Source: an uncultured virus (IMG/VR IMGVR_UViG_3300027754_000050)
Lineage: Duplodnaviria > Heunggongvirae > Uroviricota > Caudoviricetes
Direction: 5' to 3' (one strand)
Virus record (IMG/VR): IMGVR_UViG_3300027754_000050
Length of the DNA stretch: 60,677 bases
In this document: positions 595 through 52,722 of the stretch, in pieces
Numbering within the stretch: position 1 is the first letter of the stretch
Layout of the letters: each line of letters begins with the position of its first letter
Translations under genes and position numbers: made by a program
The notes under the pieces: generated by a model
Databases searched by the model: none
The model's input: only the letters and a program-made list of their open reading frames with translations
What the model was told of the DNA's origin: nothing

Positions 595-659
595 ACACCC
601 TATAAGGTACAATTAAATCATAACAATAAATATAATTGTACCTAACCCATACCGCCGGT

Positions 660-688
660 AACGGAAGGGTTTGTGTTCCCCTTCCGTT
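660..688 (-). terminator. AACGGAAGGG...CCCTTCCGTT hairpin after a stop codon (also about 1602-1629, 2256-2284; degenerate about 1172-1192)
   Basis: Repeated inverted repeat just 3' of minus-strand genes; U-tract weak. Confidence 0.5.
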
Positions 689-694
689 GTCCGA

Positions 695-1096
695 TCAGCC
701 GCACCTCACGGCCCCAGTGCCGTGGCACTCATCGCACATGCTATCGTTCCCACTGCAATAGCACTGACTCCATGCATTCGCATTCGCAGCCGGAGCGTGG
801 TACTCCGGAATCCAATTGTATCCATTGCAGTCCTCGTTGGTTTCCCAACGACCGCAATCGGCAGGGGCTGGAGAGCGGTAGGCCGCTCCGTTCCATTCCA
901 CGCTTGCAGCGTCATCGCAGGCATCGTCATCGCAGGCATCGTCGCACGGTGCGGCGACTCTGGCCGCAAGTTCTTCAACGTTATCATTCCAGTCTGCGGG
1001 CTCGCCGCAGTCAACGCACACCTCTCTAAAAGTGTCTTTCATGTCGACACTAGCGCCGCAACTTCGACAGATACTGAAATTGAAATTATTCATCAT
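695..1096 (-). CDS. Cys-rich hypothetical protein with CxxC motifs and DDAC repeats
   Basis: 133-aa ORF; CRSC, CVDC, CDECHGTG; RBS present. Confidence 0.7.
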   Translation of the reverse strand: MMNNFNFSICRSCGASVDMKDTFREVCVDCGEPADWNDNVEELAARVAAPCDDACDDDACDDAASVEWNGAAYRSPAPADCGRWETNEDCNGYNWIPEYHAPAANANAWSQCYCSGNDSMCDECHGTGAVRCG

Positions 1097-1192
1097 ATAG
1101 CTCCGGTGATACCAGTGGCAGTGTCTGCTGCCACTACCCTATAAGGTACAATTAAATTAAATTATAATAACTGGAAGGTTTGGTGTTCCCTT

Positions 1193-1531
1193 TTACAGAC
1201 CGCCGCCGGAGGTTTTCAGCCCATTGTATCCGATGGGCATTCCAATATCGTCGGCAATTATTTCTCCTGGTGCAACAACATCGTCCCTATCGAGAACCCG
1301 ATCAGCCACGACCGGATCGACGATAAATATTGTATCTTCGACTGGATCAGGCAAGCCAAATATTTCGTATACGGTTTCTACCAGCAGGAATGGTCCCAGT
1401 CCCCCGGCCATTTCAATGCTCGTGGTGACCACGTGAGCCACTGTGCCATCAGGAGGCAGCGGCCACATCTCTCCCAGCCCACCCCGAATTTTAAGAGTGG
1501 CTCCAGTTAGGTTCACAAACTTCAATTTCAT
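1193..1531 (-). CDS. conserved-looking phage hypothetical protein
   Basis: 112-aa ORF with NLT..LPPxG..GLPxP..IV pattern; GAGGA RBS. Confidence 0.75.
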   Translation of the reverse strand: MKLKFVNLTGATLKIRGGLGEMWPLPPDGTVAHVVTTSIEMAGGLGPFLLVETVYEIFGLPDPVEDTIFIVDPVVADRVLDRDDVVAPGEIIADDIGMPIGYNGLKTSGGGL

Positions 1532-1634
1532 GAGATTTATCCTCGATAACAGGTGGCAGGTACCGCTGCCACAACATAAGGTACAATTAAATTATAGTAA
1601 CCGGAAGGGTCTGGCGTTCCCCTTCCGTTGTGAA

Positions 1635-1871: not shown

Positions 1872-1933
1872 CGTTCTTCTCCGTTGATAACAGGGGACAG
1901 TATCCTATGCCACTATAAGGTACAATTAATTCC

Positions 1934-2161: not shown

Positions 2162-2291
2162 TTTGATTCTCCTATATTGGGGACTCCGATACACCCTATA
2201 AGGTACAATTAAATTATAAGAACGGATATAATTGTACCTAACCCATGCTGCCGGTAACGGAAGGGTTGGCGTTCCCCTTCCGTTGTTGGCA

Positions 2292-2732: not shown

Positions 2733-2809
2733 TTTTCTCCTTGGATAACCGGTGGCAGGTACTGCTGCCACACCCTATAAGGTACAATTGAATTTATTAG
2801 ATCGTAAAT

Positions 2810-3010: not shown

Positions 3011-3062
3011 GATAGTCTCCTGATAGTCTCCTGATACACCTTATAAGGTACAATAAATTTTA

Positions 3063-3251: not shown

Positions 3252-3307
3252 TATATTCCTTTACTATGAAGGGTAGACACACCCTATAAGGTACAATTAA
3301 AAAATAA

Positions 3308-3559: not shown

Positions 3560-3609
3560 TTTATATCTCCTTTAGTAGGGTGCAATTGGTTTATAAGGTA
3601 CAATACGAA

Positions 3610-3912: not shown

Positions 3913-4151
3913 TATTTTTATCCTTTTTCTATTTTATAAACCGTTCACATTATAAGGTACAATACGATATTACCATCCATCCGTTCTTTACTACCATCGT
4001 GGAGCCACGAGGATCGCTTCACAAGCCAATCCAGTAGTAGTTCCTATGAATACTAGGTCTGGGAGTTAAACCCAGCGTCAAGAATATATAAGATTCTTCT
4101 GCCAATCGGTTTCCACCTAGTGTATGCCCTATAAGGTACAATAAAAAGTGG

Positions 4152-5532: not shown

Positions 5533-5561
5533 GTTAAATTTCTCCTCCCTATAAGGTACAA

Positions 5562-5750
5562 TTAAATAGGGAGTATATTGTTTGCGATAAAACCTGCCGT
5601 ATTACAGGTGTTCTCCCGTGAGGAATTTATAGCATCGAATATTTTTGTGATTGTGTTGGAATCGAGGTATAGTATATCTATTTCCCATTCATCACTGAGG
5701 TATTTCAGAACGGATACAGTGAAAGCACATTCGTTTGGGTTCGTATTCAT
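5562..5750 (-). CDS. hypothetical protein
   Basis: 62 aa; stop inside the motif. Confidence 0.65.
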   Translation of the reverse strand: MNTNPNECAFTVSVLKYLSDEWEIDILYLDSNTITKIFDAINSSRENTCNTAGFIANNILPI

Positions 5751-7084: not shown

Positions 7085-7177
7085 TGTGATTCTCTTTCTT
7101 GAAATCGCCTACAAGCCCATACCCTATAAGGTACAATTAAACTTCATTTATGTTTTTGCCGTTTTTCAGAATAACCG

Positions 7178-7582: not shown

Positions 7583-7615
7583 CTGGGAATAGTAGTCATA
7601 CCCTATAAGGTACAA

Positions 7616-7960
7616 TTAAACTTCATTTATGTTTTTGCCGTTTTTCAGAATAACCGTTTTTATATCACCATAATACTGGCGGGCGTATTCGTTTGCGGCA
7701 AGATCATTTATTGTGCGAATACTTTCTAATATTTTCCATCCATCACCGTCTTTCACTGCGATCTCGTAGCTTATCGCCCATGTTTCGTTCATAAGATCAT
7801 TGCAGGCAGCGGCAGCGTGGGATATTTCCCCTTCGTTATAGTGAGGAAATATATTTATTAGATCGGATATATTCGCATTTGCACCGTTGTCATCCCATGA
7901 AATTTTTACCTCATGACCGTCTACATTCACGCTATCTCGGCTTGTTGTTGTATTATTCAT
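7616..7960 (-). CDS. hypothetical protein
   Basis: 114 aa; stop inside the motif. Confidence 0.7.
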   Translation of the reverse strand: MNNTTTSRDSVNVDGHEVKISWDDNGANANISDLINIFPHYNEGEISHAAAACNDLMNETWAISYEIAVKDGDGWKILESIRTINDLAANEYARQYYGDIKTVILKNGKNINEV

Positions 7961-8594: not shown

Positions 8595-8726
8595 CGCTAA
8601 AATCCTTTGGTGTCTTAACTATAAGATAAGGTACAATTAAATAATATCAACGGCAGAAAGTCTGTATTCTCTGGCTTTTTCTTCCAACCGAGAGGCGGTG
8701 CCTTCGTTTATTTCGCCAATATCATT

Positions 8727-8939: not shown

Positions 8940-8976
8940 GTCTCAATAAATTCCTTTGTTACAAGATAAGGTACAA

Positions 8977-9225
8977 TTAAATAACATCAACGGCAGACAG
9001 TCTGTATTCTCTGGCTTTTTCTTCCAACCGAGAGGCTACCTCGTTGTATGCATCGGCTTTGGACTTGCGACTCAGCATCCGGTGGTAACCAGAACCCCGT
9101 CCTTGTTCTCCTTTGCGTCTGGCATAAACGAAGTGGTCATCTTCTCGTAATAGTTCAAGTTCCACTACGGATAAATCCCACGTGATGATCCAGATTGTTT
9201 CCCTAGGAGATTTCATGACTCCCAA
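8977..9225 (-). CDS. hypothetical protein
   Basis: 82 aa; stop inside the motif. Confidence 0.65.
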   Translation of the reverse strand: MGVMKSPRETIWIITWDLSVVELELLREDDHFVYARRKGEQGRGSGYHRMLSRKSKADAYNEVASRLEEKAREYRLSAVDVI

Positions 9226-9324
9226 TCGTTAGAATAAATATCGTAGATGCCAACATCGTCATATTCGGTATCCATCGTATTCTCCGTTAACGTGTCTTAA
9301 CTCTACACTATAAGGTACAAATAT

Positions 9325-9795
9325 TTATTCTATGCTGGAATTAAGGAAGATTGTACTTTCCCCGTATTTTGCGATGATCTTAGCCATGAGTTCTGGCGAA
9401 AACGCTCCAATTGCTGTATCATACTCACCATCGGAGTATTTTACATTTGGTTTTCTGAAAAGCACTTTATTTTTACAAAGTTTTTTCAAATATTTATTCT
9501 CCAAAATATCTTGAAGTAGTGTTTCAACGACTGTTTCGCCGGTTTGCGGAGAATATCGGTTTTTATGACCGATAAAACTCTCACAAACTTCTGCTAGGTC
9601 TACAGGTGGTAGGGTTGCAGCATATTCATCCAAAGTTATTCGGAATGAGTTTGGGAAGATGCTTGTGTTGCCGCCCTTTCCATCGTTCGATGCAGAGCCC
9701 ATTTTTACACCGTCAACGTAAATGCTGCACTCGAAGCATTCTGTTTCTTGGCTACCAAGTGCAGAGTGTTTAACATTTTTAAGTACGATATTCAT
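9325..9795 (-). CDS. phage hypothetical protein (SxETxCF...NDGxGG)
   Basis: 156 aa filling the interval between two motif copies. Confidence 0.8.
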   Translation of the reverse strand: MNIVLKNVKHSALGSQETECFECSIYVDGVKMGSASNDGKGGNTSIFPNSFRITLDEYAATLPPVDLAEVCESFIGHKNRYSPQTGETVVETLLQDILENKYLKKLCKNKVLFRKPNVKYSDGEYDTAIGAFSPELMAKIIAKYGESTIFLNSSIE

Positions 9796-9828
9796 TTTTT
9801 ATCCTTATGCTCTATAAGGTACAATTGA

Positions 9829-10068
9829 TTATAGCCCTGCCCTTGTTCGTGCCATGCCAGCATGTGCTGCTGCCACACCATCTCGGCTCTCTGCTGCCAG
9901 ACTTTTCGCCCATTTCAACTTTTGCTGATGAGTCATCGTCGGCAAATCAACTCTTGCCGCCATCCAAGCCCCGATGGTCGTGTGTACAAATCCGTCGAGA
10001 TCGCTTTTCATGTTCTCTCCGTAATCCCCAAGATTCGTTTTGTGAAAACTGCTCATTCGTCCACACAC
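9829..10068 (-). CDS. hypothetical protein
   Basis: 79-aa ORF. Confidence 0.55.
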   Translation of the reverse strand: MCGRMSSFHKTNLGDYGENMKSDLDGFVHTTIGAWMAARVDLPTMTHQQKLKWAKSLAAESRDGVAAAHAGMARTRAGL

Positions 10069-10271: not shown

Positions 10272-10324
10272 GCTTAATTCCTTATGAAAGGTATCCCGTC
10301 ATCCTTACATACTATAAGGTACAA

Positions 10325-10504
10325 TTAATTATTAGATTCAATCCAATGCACGGGTTTGCCCTCTTCCGCAAAGTCGGCAAGTACCATAGCTCTTGCTGCG
10401 GCTTCGGTATTGGCTTGTTTGCTGCAACCATATTTTTGGTGATCGTCTTCTGAATCATCATCGTATCTGTCCTCAGACATAACCGTAAAGTAGAATGTTT
10501 TCAT
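10325..10504 (-). CDS. hypothetical protein
   Basis: ATGA-coupled; stop inside the motif. Confidence 0.6.
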   Translation of the reverse strand: MKTFYFTVMSEDRYDDDSEDDHQKYGCSKQANTEAAARAMVLADFAEEGKPVHWIESNN

Positions 10505-10758: not shown

Positions 10759-10794
10759 GTAGTCTCCTTTGTTTCCTTACACTATAAGGTACAA

Positions 10795-11163
10795 TTAATT
10801 TACTTTAATATCTTTGGTGTGTGTTTCACTAACTCCGAAGGCATTCTTGCATGAGAACTTTAGCGTTACCGTATTCCCGCTAACTTTTGTGCTAAATTCA
10901 TGGAATACCAATGAGTCTGGAAAATTCACTGAGGCTCGGACAATTTCCTTTGCCTTTAGAATCTTGTCAATATCATCGCTCGTAGTCCTGACGGTGGCGA
11001 AACCAGATTTTCTGCACATTCGACAGGGTGGCGCCGCTTCTTCCATGAGCTTTGCAGCATCTGGGTTTACTACAATTTTTCTCGCCTCTTTTACTCCTAC
11101 GGCATTGCTAATGCCTTGGAAAATACAAAATGCAAATAGCATAACAAAAATTATCGTTTTCAT
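10795..11163 (-). CDS. putative exported or membrane-anchored protein
   Basis: Hydrophobic N-terminus, FPDS..F and KNAFGV motifs. Confidence 0.75.
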   Translation of the reverse strand: MKTIIFVMLFAFCIFQGISNAVGVKEARKIVVNPDAAKLMEEAAPPCRMCRKSGFATVRTTSDDIDKILKAKEIVRASVNFPDSLVFHEFSTKVSGNTVTLKFSCKNAFGVSETHTKDIKVN

Positions 11164-11391: not shown

Positions 11392-11430
11392 AATTTCTCC
11401 TCACCCCTTAAGGTACAATTATTTTGAGGT

Positions 11431-12179: not shown

Positions 12180-12231
12180 CTTATTCTCCTTTATCCTATA
12201 AGGTACAATTAAAAACTGAATAACTCTCTAT

Positions 12232-12510: not shown

Positions 12511-12604
12511 GATTGTCTTGTCTCCTATTAAAAAGTTAATCGAACTAAACACTACACCATATAAGGTACAATTAAAAACTGAACGATCTCTCGTCCTAAT
12601 AACC

Positions 12605-13288: not shown

Positions 13289-13364
13289 TGTCCACTCTTT
13301 CTCTTGTTTTTTCAGGAAACATCACTACAACATATAAGGTACAATTAAAAACTGAACAACTCTC

Positions 13365-13757: not shown

Positions 13758-13823
13758 TGTTTTATTCCGTTATTTGTATTATGTAAAATTCACTACAACA
13801 TATAAGGTACAATTAAAAACTGT

Positions 13824-14378: not shown

Positions 14379-14431
14379 GATATTTTATCCTGTTAGTTTT
14401 TGTCGTTACACCCTATAAGGTACAATTAAAT

Positions 14432-15847: not shown

Positions 15848-15922
15848 TTTAATTCCTTTTAATTGTGGGTTACACTCTATAAGGTACAATTAAATTTATT
15901 AAATCGTAAATTCAGTTGGCAT

Positions 15923-16087: not shown

Positions 16088-16124
16088 TGCTATGCCTTTT
16101 ACACTCTATAAGGTACAATTAAAT

Positions 16125-16517: not shown

Positions 16518-16571
16518 TGTTTATTCCTTAGAGGGGTTGTTCTACACTATAAGGTACAATTAAATGCTGGT

Positions 16572-16772: not shown

Positions 16773-16818
16773 ATTCTCCTTTGGCTTTTGGGCTACACCC
16801 TATAAGGTACAATTAAAA

Positions 16819-17157: not shown

Positions 17158-17324
17158 CTTAATAAAACCTTTCTTTGTCCCTATCTGAACTCTACCCACC
17201 CGCCCCATACTATCTGGTATCCTTTGGGTTGCTCTTACCGAGTGTCCAGACTCAGCAGCGGAACGTATTGCTGTCAAATGGGTAGAGTTCAAATTGTCGT
17301 TGGGCTACACCCTATAAGGTACAA

Positions 17325-18440: not shown

Positions 18441-18534
18441 GTTTATCTCCTACACAATAAGGTACAATTATAATTTAGAATCGAGCAACTTGTAATATCG
18501 GTACAAGTTCCTCTTAACATACAATAAGGTACAA

Positions 18535-20461: not shown

Positions 20462-20506
20462 CTTCTTCTCCTGCCCTAATAAGGTACAATTAAAACCATT
20501 TTTCGG

Positions 20507-33106: not shown

Positions 33107-33141
33107 TTTAAGTTATCTGCTGGACACACTATAAGGTACAA

Positions 33142-33972: not shown

Positions 33973-34017
33973 GGTATTTTCCTTGTTATTTGTTGTTGAC
34001 TACACTATAAGGTACAA

Positions 34018-34842
34018 TTAAAAACGATACTTCTTTGCCGAAAAATATACCTTCACATAATAGTCTTTTGGGTTTTTCATTGCATGAGCAATCATAGAGT
34101 TATGCAAAAACTTTGGCAGTTTGCCCTTGCACACATCTTTTGCAAACAGATAACTCCAACAACTACTTAAAGCAATAGTTTCCTCAGACCATTCACTCCA
34201 ATCATTGCAAAACTTAGTTGCGTAAAGATACGATGGCAAAGACTGTAAATTTGCAAACGGCAAATTCAATCTTCGGGCTTCCATATCACACTTTGCGATG
34301 CTAGGTTCTCCAAGAAGAAATCTTTCGTTCGTATCAAAAGCATAGTTGTAACTATGACTACTGTTTTTGGCAATGAAGGGTTCAATTTGTTCCCACCGAG
34401 ATGGATACATATTGCCATCTTCAATGGCTCCACGAACAACAAGCATCCAATAATTCCACGCATGTTTTTCGTTTAGAAAAAGATGCTCTGCTTCCCTCCA
34501 TCGACCTTTTACGATGAACCGAGCATAATCGCAAGCAGCGTTAATATTGTCACTGCTACCATCTCTTTCACACAATTCAATAATAGCGTCTTCTGCTTCA
34601 AGCCATCTTCCCTCTATAATATTTCTAGCATACGTTTTCATTGCCCGCACACTGCACTTGAGAATATATTTCTCAAAATCTGGATGGCGGTCTACGATAC
34701 GGAAAGTAGGCGACAACTTCGTGTACTCTCTACTCCATTGACTCCAGTATTGCGACAAGAGGAGTCCTATAGGATGGTTTATTCTACTTTCCTGAGTCCA
34801 GTTGCGAGATCGGACTCGGCTGTTATCTTGTGTCTTTTGCAT
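34018..34842 (-). CDS. divergent 26-aa repeat family protein
   Basis: YA..I..GRW.EAE repeats, GKLPKFLHNSMI. Confidence 0.8.
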   Translation of the reverse strand: MQKTQDNSRVRSRNWTQESRINHPIGLLLSQYWSQWSREYTKLSPTFRIVDRHPDFEKYILKCSVRAMKTYARNIIEGRWLEAEDAIIELCERDGSSDNINAACDYARFIVKGRWREAEHLFLNEKHAWNYWMLVVRGAIEDGNMYPSRWEQIEPFIAKNSSHSYNYAFDTNERFLLGEPSIAKCDMEARRLNLPFANLQSLPSYLYATKFCNDWSEWSEETIALSSCWSYLFAKDVCKGKLPKFLHNSMIAHAMKNPKDYYVKVYFSAKKYRF

Positions 34843-34871
34843 AACAAACCATAAGGTACAATTTTAATTTC

Positions 34872-36179: not shown

Positions 36180-36225
36180 TTTTGTTTCTTTCTTTTAAGT
36201 TCACGATACACCGTATAAGGTACAA

Positions 36226-36675
36226 TTAAACCGGCACGGTCTGATGTCGTGGTGGCAGCTCAGTCCATTTAGATTTAATACAATCCTTGAGCATACCGTC
36301 TATGTGCTTCGATCCAAGCTGAAACATGAGCATAGCTCCCGTGCTTTTGGAATTCATTTTTTGGTTCAGCCTGCACATAGGTTGACCCATGCTTTTTAAG
36401 AGAGCAGTGCCCTCCGCCGAACGTGCTCCAGTATCTTGCAGTGTCTTGCCCGCAACCTTTTCGGCAGCGCGGACTAGCCCAGTGGCTAGACCTCTGCGAC
36501 GATACCTCTCCTCAATCCGAACAATCTCTAGCTTGCCGGGAGCCTTGTCGAAGGTGCAGAAGCCAACCACGTGCCCGTATTTGCCGTTGTGGCACACGCA
36601 CAATACGCAATCCGTTGAGCTAAGGTCGGAGATGTCCGCTTCCGCCCAGTAAAACTTTTCAATCTCTTGATTCAT
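36226..36675 (-). CDS. GNAT acetyltransferase
   Basis: YRRRGLAT acetyl-CoA-binding motif. Confidence 0.75.
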   Translation of the reverse strand: MNQEIEKFYWAEADISDLSSTDCVLCVCHNGKYGHVVGFCTFDKAPGKLEIVRIEERYRRRGLATGLVRAAEKVAGKTLQDTGARSAEGTALLKSMGQPMCRLNQKMNSKSTGAMLMFQLGSKHIDGMLKDCIKSKWTELPPRHQTVPV

Positions 36676-36719
36676 TTTAGTTTCTTTCTTTTAAGCTACA
36701 CACACCGTATAAGGTACAA

Positions 36720-37160
36720 TTAAAACCATTCCACCACATCTTTGGGTCTCACAGTTGTCATCTCAATGTCATGTTCTATACCTGCAATGGTCGCAAAATA
36801 CTCCTTCACCCACTCGTCGGAACTGTCCATTATACCAAATGCCAGCATTTTTCGGTGCATAATGTCTGGCAATCGTCCTTGGATTGCCCATCGTGAGTAA
36901 AAAAAAGACATTTCTGCACTCGTACTTATCGCAGCTTCGCCAAGCACGAATCGACCGCCGATTATCTCTACTGCATAATGGTAAGAATAATATGCACTCG
37001 TACTTATCGCAGCTTCACCAAGTTCCCATCGACACTGTTTTACAGCTATTGCATAGCAATAAGAAGCATCTGCTTCCCCACTGATAATCTGCTCCAGTGA
37101 TTCACGATCCTTATGGTTCTTGTCTTCACATAGTTTTCTATAAGCTTGTTCTGGATTCAT
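36720..37160 (-). CDS. 26-aa repeat family protein
   Basis: Tandem paralog. Confidence 0.85.
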   Translation of the reverse strand: MNPEQAYRKLCEDKNHKDRESLEQIISGEADASYCYAIAVKQCRWELGEAAISTSAYYSYHYAVEIIGGRFVLGEAAISTSAEMSFFYSRWAIQGRLPDIMHRKMLAFGIMDSSDEWVKEYFATIAGIEHDIEMTTVRPKDVVEWF

Positions 37161-37722
37161 TTTTAGTGTCCTTACGCTTTAAGGTACAAACTTTTCCAAA
37201 ATACTTCTTCACATCTTTGTCAGAACTGTCCGTTATACCAAATGCCAGCATTTTTCGGTGCATAATGTCTGGCAATCGTCCTTGTATTACATCTATTGCA
37301 TATAAATAAGACCATCTTGGGGCGGCTTGACTTATCGCGGCTTCGCCAAGTTCCCATCGTCCTTCGATTACATGTCGTGCATAGAAGTAAGACGATCTTG
37401 CTTCTTGACTTATCGCAGCTTCGCCAAGTTCGAATCGACCCTTGATTACATGATTTGCATAGTTAAAAGAAGTATATGCATCCTCGCTTATTGCAGCTTC
37501 ACCAAGTACGAATCGTTCGTGGATTACATATTTTGCATATTCACACGAATATTCTGCGTCCTTGCTTATGACATATTCACCAAGTACGAATCTTCCTTTG
37601 ATTACATGTTCTGCATAAAGACAAGAATATTCCGCACTTGTGCTAATAATCTGTTCTAGTGCGTCACGATCCTTATGATTAGGATCTTTATGCAATATAT
37701 CATATGCCCAATTTGGATTCAT
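37138..37722 (-). CDS. 26-aa repeat family protein
   Basis: Tandem paralog. Confidence 0.85.
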   Translation of the reverse strand: MNPNWAYDILHKDPNHKDRDALEQIISTSAEYSCLYAEHVIKGRFVLGEYVISKDAEYSCEYAKYVIHERFVLGEAAISEDAYTSFNYANHVIKGRFELGEAAISQEARSSYFYARHVIEGRWELGEAAISQAAPRWSYLYAIDVIQGRLPDIMHRKMLAFGITDSSDKDVKKYFGKVCTLKRKDTKNESRTSL

Positions 37723-38218
37723 TTTTAGTGTCCTTACGCTTTAAGGTACAATACTTTTTAGATCCTAGATACTTCTTCACATATTTGTCTGAACTGTCAA
37801 TTATACCAAATGCAATCATTTTATTGTGCATTACGGTTGGCAATCGTCCTTTGATCACATCTTTTGCGTAAATGTACAGCCATGCTGGACACTTCATTGC
37901 GAGTTCTTCTGTCCAATTTCTTCTGATAACATACTTTCCATACCAATATGAATAATATTCATATTTACATATTGTTTCTTCTGCAAGTTCGAATCGCCCA
38001 TGGATTACATTTCTTGCATAACCACAAGAATAACCTGCATTTTTGCTTATAGCAGCTTCGCCCAGTACGAATCGGCCTACCATACCCCGACGACAACATA
38101 CATTTCTTGCGTAAAGATAAGAATACTTAGAATGTGTGCTGATATCCCGCTCTAGATATTCCAGATTTTTATGGTTGTTGTTTTTTCGTAATGTTTTATA
38201 AGCTTGTTCTGGAGTCAT
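37700..38218 (-). CDS. 26-aa repeat family protein
   Basis: Tandem paralog. Confidence 0.85.
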   Translation of the reverse strand: MTPEQAYKTLRKNNNHKNLEYLERDISTHSKYSYLYARNVCCRRGMVGRFVLGEAAISKNAGYSCGYARNVIHGRFELAEETICKYEYYSYWYGKYVIRRNWTEELAMKCPAWLYIYAKDVIKGRLPTVMHNKMIAFGIIDSSDKYVKKYLGSKKYCTLKRKDTKNESKLGI

Positions 38219-38238
38219 TTTTAGTGCCCTTCCTTACA

Positions 38239-39093
38239 CTATAAGGTACAATACTTTTTAGATCCTAAATAACGCTTCACATATCTGTTCGAACTATCAA
38301 TCATACCAAAAACTAGCATTTTGTTGTGCATGGTTGTTGGTAGCCGTCCTTTGCTCACATCTTTTGCGTAGAGATAAAGCCATATAGGACACATCACGGC
38401 TAGTTCTTGCGTCCAATTTCCTCGGACCAAATCATTTGCATAAAAATTAGCATAAACTTCTTTTTTGCTTATCGCAGCTTCGCCAAGTTCGAATCGACCG
38501 CCTATTACTTCTTTTGCATAATAATAAGAAGCGTCGGCATCTTTGCTTATTGCATCTTCACCAAGTTCCCATCGCCCGCCTATTACCTCTTTTGCATACC
38601 ACTGGGACCATCTTGCTTTTTGACTTATCGCAGCTTCGCCAAGTATGAATCGTCCGCCTAATACATTTGTTGCATACTCATAAGAATGAATTGCGTCCTC
38701 GCTTATCACAGCTTCGCCAAGTTCGAATCTTCCTTCGATTACATGTTCTGCATAAAGACAAGAAACTAATGCATCCTCGCTTATTGCAGCTTCACCAAGT
38801 ACGAATCTTCCTTTGATTATATATCTTGCATACCAATAAGAATGTTCTGCATCCTTGCTGATAGCCTCTTCGCCAAGCATGAATCGACTTTCGATTGCAT
38901 ACTTTGCATACTGATAAGAATGCATTGTACTTTTGCTTATTGTAGCTTCGCCAAGTATGAATCTTCCTTGAACTACACTACTTGCATACTCCACAGAATA
39001 TTCTGCGTCCTCGCTTATAATGTGCTCCAGTGATTCACGATCCTTATGGTTCTGGTCTGCACATAATTTTTCAAACGCTTGATTTGGATTCAT
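38239..39093 (-). CDS. 26-aa repeat family protein (about 7 full repeats)
   Basis: Tandem paralog. Confidence 0.88.
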   Translation of the reverse strand: MNPNQAFEKLCADQNHKDRESLEHIISEDAEYSVEYASSVVQGRFILGEATISKSTMHSYQYAKYAIESRFMLGEEAISKDAEHSYWYARYIIKGRFVLGEAAISEDALVSCLYAEHVIEGRFELGEAVISEDAIHSYEYATNVLGGRFILGEAAISQKARWSQWYAKEVIGGRWELGEDAISKDADASYYYAKEVIGGRFELGEAAISKKEVYANFYANDLVRGNWTQELAVMCPIWLYLYAKDVSKGRLPTTMHNKMLVFGMIDSSNRYVKRYLGSKKYCTL

Positions 39094-39817
39094 TTTTAGT
39101 GTCCTTACGCTTTAAGGTACAATACTTTTTAGATCCTAAATAACGCTTCACATATTTGTCCGAACTATCCATTATACCAAAGGCTATCATTTTATTGTGC
39201 AGTACGGTTGGCAATCGACCTTTGACAACATCTTTTGCGTAAATGTATAGCCATGCTGGACACATAGCGGCGAGTTCTGGCGTCCAGTCTCGGATCGCAC
39301 ATACTGCGTAACGAAAAGACCACAGGGCATCTTTGCTTATCGCAGCTTCGCCTAATACGAATCGTTCGTGGATTATATCCCGAGCATACCAATAAGAATA
39401 CAGAGAACTCTCGCTTATTGCAGATTCGCCAAGTTCGAATCGACCTCCTATTACATGCTCTGCATAAAGACAAGAATATTCAGAACTTTTACATATTGCA
39501 GGTTCACCAAGTATGAATCGGCTTTTCAGTACATATTTTGCATAATAATGAGAATACTCTGCATCTTTGCTGATTGCTTCTTCTCCAAGTTCCCATCGTC
39601 CTTTTATGAAATGTTTTGCATAACGTTCAGCATATTCTGCATTTTTGCTTATTGCAGCTTCACCAAGCATGAATCGACACCTGAGTCTTCCTTCTGCATA
39701 ATTATAAGAATGTTCTGCACTCTCACTGATAATCTGCTCCAGTGATTCACGCTGGCGCTTCGGCAGAAGCCACTGATTATGTCCGCATAATATTCTATAC
39801 GCTATTTCTGGAGTCAT
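39071..39817 (-). CDS. 26-aa repeat family protein (about 5 full repeats)
   Basis: Tandem paralog. Confidence 0.88.
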   Translation of the reverse strand: MTPEIAYRILCGHNQWLLPKRQRESLEQIISESAEHSYNYAEGRLRCRFMLGEAAISKNAEYAERYAKHFIKGRWELGEEAISKDAEYSHYYAKYVLKSRFILGEPAICKSSEYSCLYAEHVIGGRFELGESAISESSLYSYWYARDIIHERFVLGEAAISKDALWSFRYAVCAIRDWTPELAAMCPAWLYIYAKDVVKGRLPTVLHNKMIAFGIMDSSDKYVKRYLGSKKYCTLKRKDTKNESKSSV

Positions 39818-40295
39818 GTTTTAACTTTTTTGCTAGATACTTCTTCACATATTTGTCAGAACTATCAATCATGCCAAAAACTAGCATTTTATTGTGCATG
39901 GCTTTTGGTAGCCGTCCTTTGCTCACATCTTTTGAGTAGAAAAATAGCCAGCATGGACACATCACGGCGAGTTCTTGTGTCCAATTTCCTCGGATTACAT
40001 ATTTCGCATATAGAAAAGCGTAGCGGTCACTTTTACTTATCGCAGCTTCACCAAGTTCGAATCGTGCACCGCAGAAGCCAGAGTCTCCGATTTCTGTATA
40101 CCATACAACCTTATAGCAGCCGGGCCACTTATACCACGGTAATGATGCATTTCTTTCATACGAATATATCGTTCGTCGAAAGCGTGCATAGTTGCAAGAC
40201 CACTTTGCATCACTGCATATTGTGTGTTCTAGTGATTCACGATCCTTATGGTTAGGATCTTTTTCTAAAATAGAAAACGCTATTTCTGGAGTCAT
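39795..40295 (-). CDS. 26-aa repeat family protein with an insertion
   Basis: Tandem paralog. Confidence 0.8.
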   Translation of the reverse strand: MTPEIAFSILEKDPNHKDRESLEHTICSDAKWSCNYARFRRTIYSYERNASLPWYKWPGCYKVVWYTEIGDSGFCGARFELGEAAISKSDRYAFLYAKYVIRGNWTQELAVMCPCWLFFYSKDVSKGRLPKAMHNKMLVFGMIDSSDKYVKKYLAKKLKHDSRNSV

Positions 40296-40313
40296 GTTTA
40301 ATATCTTTACCCT

Positions 40314-40856
40314 TTAAGGTACAATACTTTTTTCTAGATACTTCTTCACATATTTGTCAGAACTATCAATCATGCCAAAAACTAGCATTTTATTGTGCAT
40401 GGCTTTTGGTAGCCGTCCTTTGCTCACATCTTTTGCGTAGAGAAATAGCCAGCATGGACACATCACGGCTAGTTCTTGTGTCCAGCTTCCTCGGATTCGG
40501 ATTACATATTTCGCATACCAAAAAGAATACTCTGCATCTTTGCTTATCGCATCTTCACCAAGTTCCCAGCGACCCTTGATTACATTTATTGCATATTCAT
40601 AAGACAACTCTGCATCCTTGCTTATCGCAGCTTCACCAAGCACGAATCTTCCTTCGATTATATATTTTGCATACCAATAAGACCGCTCTGCACTCTCACT
40701 TATTGCAGCTTCGCCAAGTTTCCAGCGACCCTTGATTACATTTATTGCATATTTGTAAGACCAAAACGCATCACTGCATATTGTGTGTTCTAGTGACTCA
40801 CGATCCTTATGGTTATGATCGTTTTCTAAAATATCATACGCTTGTTCTGGAGTCAT
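40314..40856 (-). CDS. 26-aa repeat family protein
   Basis: Tandem paralog. Confidence 0.85.
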   Translation of the reverse strand: MTPEQAYDILENDHNHKDRESLEHTICSDAFWSYKYAINVIKGRWKLGEAAISESAERSYWYAKYIIEGRFVLGEAAISKDAELSYEYAINVIKGRWELGEDAISKDAEYSFWYAKYVIRIRGSWTQELAVMCPCWLFLYAKDVSKGRLPKAMHNKMLVFGMIDSSDKYVKKYLEKSIVP

Positions 40857-41469
40857 GTTTAGTGTCCTTACGCTTTAAGGTACAATACTTTTTTGCACCT
40901 AAATACTTCTTCACATATTTGTCAGAACTACCAATTATACCAAAAGAGATCATTTTATTGTGCATTACGGCTGGCAATCGACCTTTGACAACATCTTTGG
41001 CGTAAGTGTACAGCCAACATGGGCACATCACGGCTAGTTCTGGTGTCCAGTTTCCTCGGATTACATCTTTTGCATAGTCATAAGACAACTCTGCCTCTTT
41101 GCTTATTGCAGCTTCTCCAAGTTTGAATCGCTCCCAGATTATCTCTTTTGCATACCAATAAGAATACCATGCATTCTCGCTTATTGCAGCTTCTCCAAGT
41201 TCGAATCGACCGCCTATTACCCATTCTGCATACTGGTAAGAATATTCATCACTCGTACTTATCGCAGCTTCACCAAGTACGAATCGCCTCTTTATTACAT
41301 TTCTTGCAAGATCCCAGGAATTTTCTGCATTCATAACATATCGTGCATATTTATAAGAACATTCTGCATCGCTGCACAGTGTTTGTTCTAGTGCTTCACG
41401 ATCCTTATGCAGTGGCTCGTTGCGTAATATTCCATACGCTGCTATTTCTGGAGTCATTTTGCCATACAT
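40834..41469 (-). CDS. 26-aa repeat family protein
   Basis: Tandem paralog. Confidence 0.85.
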   Translation of the reverse strand: MYGKMTPEIAAYGILRNEPLHKDREALEQTLCSDAECSYKYARYVMNAENSWDLARNVIKRRFVLGEAAISTSDEYSYQYAEWVIGGRFELGEAAISENAWYSYWYAKEIIWERFKLGEAAISKEAELSYDYAKDVIRGNWTPELAVMCPCWLYTYAKDVVKGRLPAVMHNKMISFGIIGSSDKYVKKYLGAKKYCTLKRKDTKHDSRTSV

Positions 41470-41518
41470 GTGGTAATATCCTTACCCTTTAAGGTACAAT
41501 ATTATCGTTCCCGAATTA

Positions 41519-42202
41519 TCACTCGTCAAAATCTGGCGGCTCAAAGTCAATTAAAGGGTATTCTTTAGGATTGAATGTAATATAACAATGCTTTAGATCA
41601 GGAGCTTTGTTTATGATATACATTGCATCATGTAGTTTTGTTTCATTGCTGAAACATACACTTCCAATGTTTGCTTTGTTGCTTTTATAAAATTTTGCAC
41701 CACTTTTAAAACAATAACTCTGTAGCAATTTTGTATTACAGTTATTAAAACTTACATTAATCTTATAGCTACCATGGGAAACCACTGAAAGATTATTAGG
41801 AAGTGAGGAACCCGATGTGAAACAACCATAGTCAGGCTCAAAAACAAGACAACATCCTATAATTTCATTCAGGAACTTTAACTCCATATTTTCTTTATCT
41901 TCATTTTTTTCATTTTTAGATGAAACACCAAAGAAATGCGGATACGTGCCATCACAAGAAAATTCTTGTTCTATTAATTTTACCTTCAGTATGTCTCCAA
42001 AACTTACAGATGGCGTAAAAATTGGTGATTCACATAATTTTACGTATGACTTTCCTACAATTTCTGCCTTTACAATCTCAAGAACATCATTCTGATCAGT
42101 AAAACCTAAAACAGAAATATTTTCATCCTCTAAAGGTTCACTCCAAGGCCAAACATCCTTAAAACTTCGAAATACCACATAAATATCACCAGAATTTTCC
42201 AT
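41519..42202 (-). CDS. hypothetical protein
   Basis: 227 aa, RBS. Confidence 0.75.
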   Translation of the reverse strand: MENSGDIYVVFRSFKDVWPWSEPLEDENISVLGFTDQNDVLEIVKAEIVGKSYVKLCESPIFTPSVSFGDILKVKLIEQEFSCDGTYPHFFGVSSKNEKNEDKENMELKFLNEIIGCCLVFEPDYGCFTSGSSLPNNLSVVSHGSYKINVSFNNCNTKLLQSYCFKSGAKFYKSNKANIGSVCFSNETKLHDAMYIINKAPDLKHCYITFNPKEYPLIDFEPPDFDE

Positions 42203-42935
42203 ATTGCCGTTCCTTTTTTAGGTTTTGAATAGTCTACAGTCATCCAGACATCCTTGTCTAGCGAATAAGGTACAATTATTTCCTAATTCTCGATCTTTTT
42301 CAGGATAAAAACTCATTTTTTTTGCTTGTAAACAGTGTTTTTCTGGTTTCAGGTCCTCGATGGATCCCAAAAAAACATTGTTTTTCAACACGCGCGTTCA
42401 GGTCAACACCTTGGAAACGTTGTTTTCCAAACTCCCGAGCTGACGTGCACCCATAAAAACGTTGTTTTTCATGCTAGGGCCCGCCTGCAGGCATGAAAAT
42501 ATTATGTTTTTCAAAAAATGGGTCCTTGGCTGCTCAAAAAAAACGTTGTTTTTCGGGTTAATAGCTAGCTATCGGACACATTCCCTATGAAAACGTTGTT
42601 TTTCATGCTCAGACTCCGCCGGTTGGCATGTTTTTTGACCTACCCAAATATGGTAGGTCCCCAACAAATGCTATTGACCAACTCTGTCAAGGCATCGCTT
42701 TTATGATTCGGTTAAAGGAGACCCCCATGAAAATAAACCTAAAAGGCACGGAATCACAGCGGTATCGTGAGATTCGCAAGGTCAAGCAGTTTGTTCTGAT
42801 GCCCGACAAGCGTGCGATGACGCACCGACCGAAGATTGTTTCCTGCTGCTTGACCCCCAGACAGCAGCACAAAAAAATGGAAATGTACTCCGAAGGCGAC
42901 CAATGAAATGTCGTCTCACACCTCGTAAGCTGGGG

Positions 42936-46365: not shown

Positions 46366-46394
46366 ATTATAGGATTAAAAGGGCGGCTTGTCAA
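46366..46394 (-). promoter_or_regulatory. consensus sigma70 promoter
   Basis: TTGACA-17-TATAAT. Confidence 0.85.
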
Positions 46395-48608: not shown

Positions 48609-48634
48609 GACTACACTTTAAGGTACAATAAAAT

Positions 48635-49591: not shown

Positions 49592-51027
49592 GATAATTTA
49601 AACCAAGAAGGATCCGAAAGAGCTTTGTATGCTAACATACTGCCCAATTTTGTCAAGCATTCATGATAGCTCGACTCATAATGCCATCCCGCAGTATGAC
49701 CAAGTTCATGAATAATTAAATTCAGCATAGAACACGATACAACACCATTCTTTAAAACCCATTCCTTATCACTAAAATGAGCGACGTTAAACCGCAGCAC
49801 ATGCGACGAGGAACAATAATCAGCCTTAGAACTGCTGTCCGGAGAACTATAAAATATCACAGAACAACGTACGTCGAGCATCTCATGTGCTATACGTTTG
49901 CAAAAATTTCCAATGATAACCATTTCCGGTGATGGAGTCACCACCTCACCACTGCATATGTTGGTTTTAAAAATCGCAGAACTACTCGACATCAAACCGC
50001 CCGAACGAACCTTGCCCCACTCTTCCTTGTTCATCTCAGATGAATACACAACATTATAATTGTTGCTAATCGCTTCATCCATAGAACGCTTGTCAAAAGG
50101 ATTCGCAATACAACGCTTGTTTCCATATCGAGTATCCAATACATGGTCACAAACATCTTTTTCACTTCGCTCAGTACAGAACCCTTCCCGTACCCAAACT
50201 GCACTCGCACTCTCTGGAGTGATCTCATCAATCACAACATTCAGCAGTTCACCATATACTAGCTTTAAATACTTCGGGTCTACCGTATCTCTATCAATGC
50301 TAAGAGGAACCCGCATACCAATATCACAAGAATACTCACAGTCTATTTCTGTAATCGGAATGCCCATTTCATAGATGTATGATGCCCCGTCGCTCTTGTG
50401 AACGTGTACGTCTGTAACCTTGTGCGTCTTACGCATAACACCGCCCGATAGTGCCACGGTCGGCAGTAATGCACTAAAAGAGGCATGTGGCTTCTTATAG
50501 GAATACTCGATACGTACCCCATCAACACTCGCTAGGAATTTTAACCCTTTTGGAACGAGTATTCGACGTAGATAATGGCAGCATGATTCATAAGACTCTC
50601 TTGTCATTTTCACAAGTACACTCACTTCACTGCCAATTTCTCGCTTACGACGACCGTGAGACCGTACGCCACGAATCAAATCGAAAGAAATGCACCCCTT
50701 TGTAGAAACTATGACGGCACTCTCTGCCATGCACAGAACCTGCTTCTCTCCTAAATTAAACCGTCCCCTCTTGTGAATGTTCCCACGCTTACTCGTAGTT
50801 TTAAATAATGTGTAAGCATCACTTAAATCCTGGAAACCATCGGGAGAGTCATCCTCCACAACAATATTCGCTCGACCACGACTGTAGCTCATATTTACAG
50901 ACACAGAACTTATTTTTTCATCCAAAGCATTCTGAATTAACTCACGAACGATAAACCAAACCGGCTTTTCAGCTTGAAGTTCTCGTAAACCATCAATATC
51001 AACAACGAATATATTGTTATTTTTCAT
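49588..51027 (-). CDS. GHKL (HSP90-like) ATPase with a C-terminal HExxH
   Basis: RELIQNALD, EDD...G, RGRFNLGEK, GSEV; IIHELGH. Confidence 0.82.
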   Translation of the reverse strand: MKNNNIFVVDIDGLRELQAEKPVWFIVRELIQNALDEKISSVSVNMSYSRGRANIVVEDDSPDGFQDLSDAYTLFKTTSKRGNIHKRGRFNLGEKQVLCMAESAVIVSTKGCISFDLIRGVRSHGRRKREIGSEVSVLVKMTRESYESCCHYLRRILVPKGLKFLASVDGVRIEYSYKKPHASFSALLPTVALSGGVMRKTHKVTDVHVHKSDGASYIYEMGIPITEIDCEYSCDIGMRVPLSIDRDTVDPKYLKLVYGELLNVVIDEITPESASAVWVREGFCTERSEKDVCDHVLDTRYGNKRCIANPFDKRSMDEAISNNYNVVYSSEMNKEEWGKVRSGGLMSSSSAIFKTNICSGEVVTPSPEMVIIGNFCKRIAHEMLDVRCSVIFYSSPDSSSKADYCSSSHVLRFNVAHFSDKEWVLKNGVVSCSMLNLIIHELGHTAGWHYESSYHECLTKLGSMLAYKALSDPSWFKLS

Positions 51028-51076
51028 GCTTCACCATGGGTTAAGGATATCATTCTCACTATAAGGTACAATTAAA

Positions 51077-51370
51077 TCATCCTTTTTTCGCCGGATAATT
51101 TTTACTCCTGTCGCCATCTTTTAGCTCCAGAGTAATCCAGGCGATTTCGAAGTTCTGCAGGACGCCCGAATACATTGTTTCTAAGTATTCTCGCACGGCA
51201 CGAAACGTACCACCTCGCACCTCACCATGAATTGGACCTATTACTCCCTCATACGCTGTATGAGGTAAATCCTCGAGGTTTTCATCCTCCCAATCAATAT
51301 CTTCATGCCGTGGGCGCAAAAAAGCAAAAAACAAACATCGAGGCTTAAACGGTGGAATAACTTTCTTCAT
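51077..51370 (-). CDS. hypothetical protein
   Basis: 97 aa between motif copies, RBS. Confidence 0.7.
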   Translation of the reverse strand: MKKVIPPFKPRCLFFAFLRPRHEDIDWEDENLEDLPHTAYEGVIGPIHGEVRGGTFRAVREYLETMYSGVLQNFEIAWITLELKDGDRSKNYPAKKG

Positions 51371-51402
51371 ACGATTCTCCTATCCTATAAGGTACAATAA
51401 AT

Positions 51403-52320
51403 TTATGCGCCATAACCGGTTGGGATCGCACTTATTTTCTTCCTGTGCACTATTGAACCACGCCGAACACGTATTTTTGGAATTTTACGTCCAACCCCTG
51501 TCCAATACAGTGCTGCAAGGCATGGACCACGAAGATGAGGTGAGATTTCTATACTTTTGCCAACACTCCAACCTACCTTACCTCGACCGTGTGCCCTAAC
51601 AATATACTTTTCATCATGACATGCTTCGAATTTGGAAACATCTCCATTCAACACCTCTGGCACTACAACTTCAGGATCAGAAGCCAATAAGCATACAGTA
51701 CAGATTAAACGTGTAATGTCTCGTATAATATCTTCTGGATACAGAACTCCATCACTGCTAGAATCATGTGCAGGAATGTTCGTCAAACTCCATTCTATAG
51801 TTTTCCCTGTTTCACATAAAATATGCTTATAAAGAACACGACGTAATCCATCCCCTATGATTTCATTTATGTCTACCCAAAAACTAATTGCTCGTACCGG
51901 CTCACAAAAAGGTTTATGAAGATACGAGTTTTCACACAATATGCTACAAATACGATGTTCTTTGTCGCCATGCATGAATCGTAAAGGATGATTCTCATTC
52001 ACAGGAAGCCGTAACAATAAAGTATCCACCGGCAACCGGAAATAACCAGAATCAACATCTAACTTTATCCGCAATAATGCAGGAATAATACCTGGATATA
52101 TATCATAATACGGACGCCGTGATTCGATCCACCGCTGCTCAAGAGTTAAAAGAGCAGGAGTAAAAGGATCTAGGTCAGACAGTTCCTTGTATCCAAGATC
52201 CCGTGCTTGAGCCTCCATCCGGTCCAAATAACTCCTCGTGAAAACCTGTACGTTTTCTGTGTGAGGCATTTTTTTGCCCTTGCCCCAATTGAAATGAGTC
52301 TCATAATCATGAAATTTCAT
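51403..52320 (-). CDS. hypothetical protein
   Basis: 305 aa; PH.R...W.G.GR C-terminal pattern. Confidence 0.8.
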   Translation of the reverse strand: MKFHDYETHFNWGKGKKMPHTENVQVFTRSYLDRMEAQARDLGYKELSDLDPFTPALLTLEQRWIESRRPYYDIYPGIIPALLRIKLDVDSGYFRLPVDTLLLRLPVNENHPLRFMHGDKEHRICSILCENSYLHKPFCEPVRAISFWVDINEIIGDGLRRVLYKHILCETGKTIEWSLTNIPAHDSSSDGVLYPEDIIRDITRLICTVCLLASDPEVVVPEVLNGDVSKFEACHDEKYIVRAHGRGKVGWSVGKSIEISPHLRGPCLAALYWTGVGRKIPKIRVRRGSIVHRKKISAIPTGYGA

Positions 52321-52722
52321 AATTTTTCACCTTGACAAAAGATTTCTTGAGGACTACAACGGTCGGAACGACCGGTTTCACCGGATGCGAAAAACATCGT
52401 TCCCAGTATAAGGTACAATAAAATAGGAGTCTATGGAATGAAAAACGCTTTAACTACCACCGTTTTAGCCGCAGCGTGATTGAGCTTCTTGTTCAGCGTG
52501 ACTTTGTGGTTTAACGGAGTTTCATGGGATGTGTCGCCAGAAACATCCAAACAATACGGAATATTTGTCGGATTATGGGTACCGTCTATATTAGGGTTAG
52601 GGTGCTACTTCAAAAAGGATGTGTAATGGAATCCTTAATATTTTGTGCTGGAGGCTTCGTTTCGCTTCTGCTAATGGTTGGAATAATACTGGAATACCGT
52701 GGAATCCCATGATTCCGCTACC

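Follow-up and report, generated by a model that had tools for sequence, protein, structure and literature searches.

A 24-nucleotide block repeated 68 times in a large freshwater phage is probably a phage-specific promoter whose copies likely also serve gene exchange

Does a short sequence that recurs dozens of times between the small genes of a phage start transcription, mark sites of recombination, or do both? The question is raised by IMG/VR record IMGVR_UViG_3300027754_000050, DNA of an uncultured virus of the Caudoviricetes, of which we analysed a stretch of 60,677 nucleotides (the window). A preliminary description had offered two readings of the repeat: an integron-like accessory array, or a single-box promoter specific to the phage that is a hotspot of recombination as well. 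Our results support the second reading and speak against the first. The repeat probably represents a promoter of a phage-specific class in a large freshwater phage, with copies that likely also serve gene exchange.

We first asked how many copies there are and where they stop. A search with the previously described 17-mer, allowing up to 2 mismatches, returned 57 copies, every one on the plus strand, against a chance expectation of 0.03. The core AGGTACAA occurred 69 times on the plus strand and twice on the minus strand (chance expectation, 1.7). We then made a 24-nt position weight matrix (PWM) from motif copies and accepted sites scoring at least 15 bits, which gave 68 sites, all 68 in the minus-strand sense of the genes and none in the plus sense. 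The scores were bimodal, with a gap from 8 to 14 bits, and the top score in 20 shuffles was 10.2. The leftmost block lies at 595-618 and the rightmost at 52401-52424; past 52424 the PWM scan found no site on either strand, and the array may run on leftward past position 1 of the window. The earlier count of about 68 copies was therefore exact, and the single orientation and the absence beyond 52.4 kb were confirmed. Sixty-four sites lie within 41.7 kb (612-42275), which averages to one in 661 bp (median spacing, 561 bp); just four more follow between 42.3 and 52.4 kb, where one gap measures 6.35 kb. The units are smaller than the mostly 1-5 genes given before, as a median spacing of 561 bp corresponds to mostly 1-2 genes.

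In the gene sense, the conserved block reads (A)TTTAA-TTGTACC-TTATA-GGGTGT and comprises 23-24 consecutive positions holding about 29 bits. Its logo is contiguous, without a variable spacer, and the flanks are at background level on both sides. Conservation is asymmetric, as it extends another 6 nt (to +6) downstream but not upstream, and a G directly follows TATA in 48 of the 71 core copies. A Shine-Dalgarno (SD)-like sequence and a start codon, opening an open reading frame (ORF) of at least 30 amino acids, lie downstream of 65 of the 71 TTGTACC copies, and they follow the G after TATA at a distance of 15-197 nt, with a median of 33. At 55 of the 68 sites, an upstream ORF of at least 45 amino acids stops inside the block or no more than 60 nt upstream of it, and in 15 of those 55 the TAA within the block is the stop codon of the upstream gene. 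Three sites, in a tandem array of paralogues, have the block within the 3' end of the preceding gene. Roughly 40% of every short gap between genes consists of the block. Two copies border tRNA genes: one (48611-48634) stands 8 nt ahead of tRNA-Lys and tRNA-Glu, and another (29163-29186) directly adjoins the 3' end of tRNA-Arg.

The block is long, contiguous and strictly co-oriented with the genes, it keeps a fixed position ahead of SD and ATG, and one copy stands before two tRNA genes; all of this argues for a phage-specific class of promoter. From these sequence features, we consider it very likely that the repeat is a promoter. Transcription would start at the G after TATA, and the block would then span about -17 to +6. 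It would open with A/T-rich sequence, continue with a specificity core of 8 nt, place TATA at -4 to -1 and end in a G-rich start.

To ask whether the repeat also has a part in rearrangement, we compared the window with its relatives. A metagenome scan returned 53 loci, from which 8 unrelated loci, 10 of a near-identical contig and 6 redundant sub-loci were removed, leaving 29 contigs with about 85-99% identity to the window. The unrelated loci (L017, L020, L024, L031, L040, L051, L064 and L067) were chance matches, and the five TTGTACC copies in L024 and L040 had no context in common. Events were defined as indels or replacements of at least 30 nt in the chained alignments; the 29 contigs yielded 50 distinct events with 88 distinct breakpoints. 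Thirty of the 88 breakpoints fell on a block (within 5 nt), against 4.6 expected and a maximum of 13 in 5,000 randomisations. Ten events had both ends on blocks, 15 had one end and 25 had neither. The block-associated breakpoints clustered at both block edges, as expected if alignments from either side run through the common repeat, and about 20 further breakpoints lay in leaders or at most 60 nt from a block.

In two relatives, L029 and L053, 294 nt are missing, and the single promoter that remains has its upstream flank from the copy at 3603 and its downstream flank from the copy at 3296; L037 has a hybrid promoter formed likewise between the copies at 16118 and 15889. An additional 394-nt gene at 22877 is flanked by two motif copies in L019, L030 and L037, and two additional cassettes at 2793 in L053 are also flanked by copies, whereas the insertions at 16100 in L030 and at 14407 in L068 have the motif at one end only. 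Junction overlaps of 13-38 nt corresponded to the common motif stretch. Logan contigs from runs X2 and X4 contained promoter-to-promoter deletions of 340 nt (38 nt in common) and 229 nt (31 nt in common). Two inserted cassettes were paralogues (86% and 68%) of cassettes elsewhere in the window, suggesting that units move between slots. Of 221 motif copies counted in the relatives, 59 lay in segments without a 90% match to the window, which indicates that unseen cassettes bring the same promoter.

Two kinds of apparent junction were set aside. Long-range joints (for example, 10325 to 21706 and 14431 to 24959) were contig ends reading into the repeat, with 20-25 nt on one side. An apparent 7.1-kb deletion in L044 (8982 to 16099) was better explained as an 86% paralogue of cassette 8727-8982 placed in slot 16100.

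The in-register hybrid junctions are likely products of repeat-mediated homologous exchange or slippage. Direct repeats of the same 24-38 nt, spaced at about 660 bp, would give ordinary homologous recombination or slippage during replication the short homology that they need. Genes could thereby be deleted, duplicated, moved or replaced from promoter to promoter, and each exchange would restore an intact promoter, so that the new arrangement would still be expressed. This would not be site-specific recombination. The earlier suggestion of a phage-specific single-box promoter doubling as a hotspot agrees with the contiguous block, its place before SD and ATG, its co-orientation, the breakpoints on blocks and the hybrids.

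Which enzyme would read such a promoter, and from where? The arm comprises roughly 90-100 small minus-strand ORFs by a crude ORF call. We scanned 76 ORFs against Pfam and PHROGs and 27 against NCBIfam; 53 of the 76 larger ORFs had no Pfam family at an E-value of 0.001 or better. Recognised genes of the arm encode an exonuclease, a MoxR-like ATPase with its vWA/DUF2201 partner, and PcfJ-like, GNAT, CAP-domain and TilS-like PP-loop proteins. A polymerase gene would have to lie outside the window. Judging from the form of the block, we see an even chance that the reader is a T7-type polymerase encoded there; some other phage-encoded polymerase is a weaker candidate.

Promoters of host type are present as well. 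The window has two perfect sigma-70 consensus matches, both on the gene strand, against 0.07 expected. In the stretches scanned (1-20000 and 42-60.7 kb), sigma-70 pairs with 11-12 of 12 matches were met only in the motif-poor 42-60.7 kb, and the best match within 1-20000 scored 10, which fits the repeat being a separate promoter class. Two promoter classes appear to be in use, with the host type heading the arm. The two perfect sigma-70 promoters suggest that host polymerase would begin expression first, at the promoter-poor upstream 10 kb. A terminator scan of 1-20000 gave only three minus-strand matches, none clearly strong, and with terminators so scarce in this stretch, transcripts are probably nested and formed by read-through. 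The only strong terminator-like hairpin in 1-20000 and 42000-60677 was one with an 18-bp stem and a T run at 45917-45956. In RNA run X20, short contigs covered a small share of the region, two ending 7 and 19 nt before predicted starts and two spanning promoter copies; such contigs cannot mark starts, and DNA is possible in the library.

Several points weigh against a promoter with a second role in exchange. Pfam, PHROGs, NCBIfam and PDB sequence searches of the window turned up neither an RNA polymerase nor a sigma factor or any other protein of transcription, and T7-like RNA polymerase (Pfam RNA_pol, PF00940) had no match among the 76 ORFs, the largest of which has 485 amino acids. Fifty-eight of the 88 breakpoints lie off the block and 25 of the 50 events touch no block. 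Given the share of each gap that the block occupies, selection for intact genes alone would enrich breakpoints there, and the in-register hybrid junctions are the one observation that speaks for the motif itself. The promoter-to-promoter deletions could in part be repeat-collapse artefacts of short-read assembly. Among close relatives, finally, the block diverges only a little less than the sequence around it (2.1% vs 3.3% of positions differing).

The rival that survives best is that the repeat is a promoter and nothing else, and that breakpoints coincide with it since gene-sparing indels break in short, promoter-rich gaps. This would account for the half of the events that touch no block, for the breakpoints in leaders or close to a block, and for the insertions in L030 and L068 that have a copy at one end. 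The in-register hybrids in L029 and L037, the 13-38-nt overlaps and the insertions bounded by two copies are instead signs of repeat-mediated exchange and not of random intergenic breakage, and we consider a role in transcription alone unlikely, though it deserves to be taken seriously.

A less favoured rival concerns the reader of the promoter. Host RNA polymerase could be redirected to a single box by a sigma-like or appropriator protein of the phage, in the style of T4 late or phiEco32 middle and late promoters. No phage polymerase was found in the window, and the phage also has host-type sigma-70 promoters, which would fit. Single-box promoters of phage sigma-like factors (T4 late, phiEco32) are 8-9 nt long, however, and the block, with its 23-24 contiguous nucleotides and about 29 bits, is much longer. 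It also lacks the bipartite -35/-10 spacing, and searches of the window gave no sigma-like protein. A host enzyme with a phage factor is therefore an improbable reader.

The repeat could also act at the RNA level, as a processing or regulatory site heading each cistron of polycistronic transcripts and cut or bound by a phage protein. Its position between cistrons and fairly constant distance to the SD are in keeping with this, but its folding is not. The 45 nt upstream of the block had a mean minimum free energy (MFE) of -6.13 kcal/mol vs -6.16 kcal/mol in random windows, showing no excess of hairpins, and the leaders folded more weakly than random (-4.32 vs -5.42 kcal/mol). Seven of 68 leaders reached an MFE of -10 or lower, compared with 12.75% of random windows, which is not above chance; G+C-rich leader stem-loops are a subset feature, a family following the leftmost copies. 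The block itself has no self-complementarity beyond its 5-bp arms. A linear, strictly conserved 24-nt processing site would be unusual, and TATA followed by G fits initiation, leaving an RNA-level signal very unlikely.

Combining promoter and recombination site, the promoter core might be the crossover point of a dedicated system encoded outside the window, a phage counterpart of the integron whose cassettes, each with its own promoter, would leave as circles and re-enter at any copy. Both the in-register hybrid promoters and the presence of paralogous cassettes in more than one slot would agree with this, and the enzyme could lie outside the window. A back-joining joint, the sign of a mini-circle, was absent among the 15 joints listed of 33, all from contigs. 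We hold such a system to be scarcely probable. Least probable of all is the integron-like array on a minimal tyrosine-recombinase or Xer site, with cutting and joining in the 7-bp core by a recombinase encoded elsewhere: direct repeats do bound cassettes, ten events have both ends on blocks and one copy has perfect 5-bp inverted arms, but the arms are imperfect in most copies, conservation is asymmetric to +6, breakpoints fall at both block edges and beyond instead of at a single crossover point, every cassette has its own promoter-to-SD geometry, and the motif predicts gene starts far better than any recombination scar. The perfect TATAA/TTATA arms reported at 22862-22878 exist, but they are not general, as the arm before the core is TTTAA in most copies and the symmetry-giving position is A in 19 of 71. 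The reported lack of a recombinase was borne out, with no match to recombinase families among 76 ORFs (Pfam, PHROGs) and 27 ORFs (NCBIfam) and none in PDB sequence searches of the window.

Table 1. Coordinates of the array, the putative promoter copies (listed in the direction of the genes) and associated features in the window.
Feature	Coordinates	Strand	PWM score (bits)	Remarks
Whole array	595..52424	-		68 co-oriented blocks, ~90-100 small minus-strand genes, 4 tRNAs
Perfect sigma-70 consensus promoter	52723..52751	-		both hexamers, 17-nt spacer, TG before -10; ~300 nt upstream of first phage-type promoter
Putative promoter	52401..52424	-	27.9	furthest upstream
Putative promoter	51380..51403	-	31.0	
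Putative promoter	51054..51077	-	31.3	
Putative promoter	48611..48634	-	31.4	ahead of tRNA-Lys/tRNA-Glu
Second perfect sigma-70 consensus promoter	46366..46394	-		in motif-poor stretch; then 116-aa gene and 18-bp-stem terminator 45917-45956
Putative promoter	42258..42281	-	23.8	
Tandem array of ~9 paralogous genes	36720..42202	-		each with promoter variant inside or right after 3' end of previous copy
Putative promoter	41482..41505	-	26.6	paralogue array, variant TTAAAG
Putative promoter	40868..40891	-	24.0	paralogue array, variant
Putative promoter	40307..40330	-	26.2	paralogue array, variant
Putative promoter	39105..39128	-	24.0	paralogue array, variant
Putative promoter	38234..38257	-	28.1	paralogue array
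Putative promoter	37734..37757	-	24.0	paralogue array, variant
Putative promoter	37172..37195	-	15.3	lowest score of all
Putative promoter	36702..36725	-	34.2	
Putative promoter	36208..36231	-	33.1	
Putative promoter	34844..34867	-	24.5	
Putative promoter	34000..34023	-	35.0	
Putative promoter	33124..33147	-	37.1	
Putative promoter	32544..32567	-	36.0	
Putative promoter	31644..31667	-	36.0	
Putative promoter	30510..30533	-	30.6	strong leader stem-loop, -24.4 kcal/mol
Putative promoter	29720..29743	-	31.1	
Putative promoter	29163..29186	-	30.5	adjoins tRNA-Arg 3' end
Putative promoter	27705..27728	-	28.0	
Putative promoter	27023..27046	-	26.2	
Putative promoter	25647..25670	-	17.7	
Putative promoter	24963..24986	-	36.0	
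Putative promoter	24631..24654	-	30.0	
Putative promoter	22856..22879	-	36.5	perfect TATAA/TTATA arms; slot of relatives' extra 394-nt cassette
Putative promoter	22805..22828	-	31.4	51 nt after 22856..22879
Putative promoter	22147..22170	-	28.1	
Putative promoter	21706..21729	-	33.1	
Putative promoter	20888..20911	-	21.1	edge of 429-432-nt indel (4 contigs, 3 runs)
Putative promoter	20472..20495	-	23.2	
Putative promoter	19145..19168	-	16.2	weak
Putative promoter	18891..18914	-	30.3	
Putative promoter	18517..18540	-	26.2	
Putative promoter	18450..18473	-	30.4	
Putative promoter	17307..17330	-	33.0	
Putative promoter	16795..16818	-	37.2	
Putative promoter	16542..16565	-	35.9	
Putative promoter	16101..16124	-	36.0	hybrid-junction partner of 15872-15895; slot of 295-297-nt cassette insertion in relatives
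Putative promoter	15872..15895	-	36.0	hybrid-junction partner of 16101-16124 (relative L037; runs X2, X4)
Putative promoter	14408..14431	-	38.1	top score; 294-nt gene inserted just past +6 in one relative
Putative promoter	13795..13818	-	31.0	
Putative promoter	13327..13350	-	31.0	
Putative promoter	12554..12577	-	34.7	
Putative promoter	12191..12214	-	32.9	
Putative promoter	11401..11424	-	28.4	
Putative promoter	10777..10800	-	33.9	
Putative promoter	10307..10330	-	32.8	replacement edge in 3 relatives
Putative promoter	9807..9830	-	27.6	
Putative promoter	9303..9326	-	28.3	
Putative promoter	8959..8982	-	29.8	38 nt common with copy 8619-8642
Putative promoter	8619..8642	-	27.5	partner of 8959-8982 in 340-nt deletion (runs X2, X4)
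Putative promoter	7598..7621	-	35.5	
Putative promoter	7119..7142	-	35.5	
Putative promoter	5544..5567	-	32.7	
Putative promoter	4124..4147	-	32.6	
Putative promoter	3945..3968	-	25.0	
Putative promoter	3586..3609	-	16.1	hybrid-junction partner of 3279-3302 (294 nt between absent in L029, L053)
Putative promoter	3279..3302	-	37.2	hybrid-junction partner of 3586-3609
Putative promoter	3036..3059	-	31.8	
Putative promoter	2770..2793	-	34.2	slot of L053's 596-nt two-cassette insertion, motif-bounded
Putative promoter	2191..2214	-	38.1	
Putative promoter	1908..1931	-	27.7	
Putative promoter	1569..1592	-	31.2	
Putative promoter	1134..1157	-	36.9	
Inverted partial copy of motif's upstream half	636..643	+		~18 nt upstream of promoter 612; possible 10-bp stem with promoter 612
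Putative promoter	595..618	-	38.1	last of window
Leader with G+C-rich stem-loop just after putative start	551..600	-		MFE -19.1; similar leaders after copies at 1151, 1586, 2787

Several stretches of the window stand out in other ways. The tandem paralogues encode proteins of 146-284 amino acids without a family match, and TTAAAG replaces TTATAG in the promoter embedded at their junctions. A tenth paralogue lies 10 kb off, at 26971-27546 (minus strand), and the copy number seems variable among related contigs (L021, L023 and L042). The leftmost part, 1-4000, has a G+C content of 47-50%, compared with about 42% in the remaining arm, and holds promoter copies with G+C-rich leader stem-loops together with inverted partial copies of the motif. 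There are two of the latter, at 636-643 and 2232-2239, neither mentioned in the preliminary description, the second of which precedes the promoter copy at 2208 and could pair with it. This part is also the most divergent and most rearranged among the relatives, with 85-88% identity in L041, L053 and L065. To the right of the array (52424-60677), the G+C content is 34-38%, genes lie on both strands (ThyX, DUF6428 and RRXRR-HNH), and neither promoter class is obvious save for an 11/12 sigma-70 match at 59607-59635.

Within the motif-poor stretch, 45917-46394 (minus strand) forms a self-contained host-type unit of sigma-70 promoter, 116-aa gene and hairpin, and resembles a moron. Next to it, 45129-45907 (minus strand) encodes a 217-aa protein that matches only the N-terminal PP-loop domain of tRNA lysidine synthetase TilS (E-value, 2.8e-20), under the curated cut-off. 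A tRNA with anticodon CAT lies directly downstream of this gene, and a near-consensus sigma-70 promoter (11/12) at 45248-45276 stands just ahead of the tRNA. The phage may carry a tRNA-Ile2-like tRNA plus its modifying enzyme.

Other genes of the arm include two that resemble ATP-dependent DNA ligases, at 17328-18440 and 25673-27040 (both minus strand); the smaller has an N-terminal WGR domain and also matches nucleotidyltransferase families of RNA ligases and capping enzymes. A MoxR-like AAA ATPase (phrog_1297) and a metallopeptidase-plus-vWA protein (DUF2201) are encoded at 30531-31607 and 34875-36179 (both minus strand), and the PHROGs label "HNH endonuclease" on the vWA family looks like an annotation error. 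A protein with a CAP/SCP domain (cysteine-rich secretory protein family; E-value, 4e-15) is encoded at 4281-4841 (minus strand).

We then examined where this phage and its repeat occur. Positions 4948-44020 of the window are matched at 99.99-100% identity by a lake-metagenome contig of 95,719 bp, which would reach about 40 kb past the right end of the window, indicating a genome of more than 100 kb. Run X7 includes a 108-kb record. Positions 14001-24000 or close relatives are indexed in 19 further freshwater or lake DNA runs (42-57% of sampled words), and in the three of these 19 that were examined, contigs were 90-99% similar over nearly all 20 kb. A near-identity search with 20 kb gave no match in 50,697 phage records, nor did a 33-nt promoter query in distant mode against the same records. 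The searched literature contained no relevant occurrence of the motif sequence, only two chance matches, and the core sequence appears to be new. A 16-mer motif scan of IMG/VR returned 16 single matches, all within unrelated coding sequences, and a 19-mer scan of GTDB genomes returned one chance match, in a Terribacillus genome.

The ATPase (30531-31607) found no relative in IMG/VR. Translated searches (tblastn) with the vWA and PcfJ-like proteins gave matches of at most about 42% identity (at most 31% for vWA) in N4-like, Rak2-like, Thermus and Bacillus phages; for the vWA protein, the nearest phage sequences, about 28-31% identical, belonged to N4-like Vibrio and Pseudoalteromonas phages, Thermus phage phiFa and Rak2-like jumbo phages. 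A 335-aa protein at 56862-57866 (minus strand), with a faint glycosyltransferase-1 match, had 183 IMG/VR relatives at 35-58% identity, many in giant-virus bins. Its carriers were rejected as relatives, as the best 80 of the 183 loci had essentially no other window gene; a weak ThyX match (27-28%) occurred in 3 of these 80. It seems to be a single gene that passes widely among aquatic viruses.

If the repeat is indeed a phage-specific promoter with a second role in exchange, a phage of more than 100 kb would carry a 50-kb accessory arm with one promoter per gene, of a kind otherwise known from 40-kb T7-like phages. The promoter would be new and orthogonal, presumably with a new polymerase, and its 68 natural variants could serve to calibrate strength. 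Public freshwater and lake population data would make the rates and units of cassette turnover measurable in nature.

Among known systems, integrons (attC/attI) and Xer dif/pdif sites share with the arm co-oriented cassettes parted by a recurring short site. Xer dif/pdif sites consist of two inverted arms of about 11 bp around a 6-8-bp spacer, whereas the arms here measure 5 bp and are imperfect in most copies. Unlike in integrons, there is no attC-type long imperfect palindrome and no excess folding, and each unit has its own putative promoter block, SD and ATG instead of a common promoter. No integrase or Xer gene was found in the window, and the repeat has no fixed crossover point. Phages with multisubunit RNA polymerases, phiKZ and AR9, are similar in having many co-oriented phage-specific promoters before small genes, and large genomes. 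The AR9 late consensus is short, comprising the start and the four conserved bases from -11 to -8, in contrast to the 23-24 contiguous conserved positions here (PMC5449584). Our literature search for large phages that are rich in promoters and encode a polymerase of their own brought up nothing comparable.

The closest likeness in form is to the promoters of T7-type single-subunit phage RNA polymerases (T7, T3, SP6, ICP3 and relatives), which have an A/T-rich upstream end, a phage-specific core and TATA before a G-rich start; T7 has about 17 of them, and T7-like phage genomes measure about 40 kb. The copies here are likewise gene-oriented (68 of 68), multicopy and upstream of the genes they would serve. 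Promoters of T7-like phages are described as related to a 23-bp consensus in which -17 to -8 gives phage specificity, and ICP3 has 14 of them (PMC3037004). Like this consensus, the block is a contiguous stretch of about 23 nt without a variable spacer (PMC3037004). The array differs in number, with 68 copies in 52 kb, or about one per gene, against the 14 given for ICP3 in the same text (PMC3037004), and also in the genome size of more than 100 kb and the apparently new sequence.

In behaviour, the array is closest to the promoter-early stem-loops (PeSLs) of T4-like phages. As presented in two reports, PeSLs combine a sigma-70-like promoter with a terminator stem-loop, pepper hyperplastic regions of small non-essential ORFans, and allow modular shuffling via homologous recombination, with mini-circles shown physically (PMC2839356, PMC4122927). 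To that extent, both are short repeated regulatory cassettes at which the indels and replacements of relatives break. The block differs in having no bipartite -35/-10 geometry, with perfect sigma-70 promoters sitting elsewhere; stem-loops are not enriched, and the two stretches scanned hold few terminator-like hairpins. The parallel with T4 PeSLs drawn in the preliminary description thus applies to behaviour but not to membership, as there is neither a sigma-70-like promoter nor a general stem-loop. No new kind of recombination system is added. If our reading is right, the idea of repeated promoters as joints of gene exchange would extend from the sigma-70 promoters of PeSLs to phage-specific promoters.

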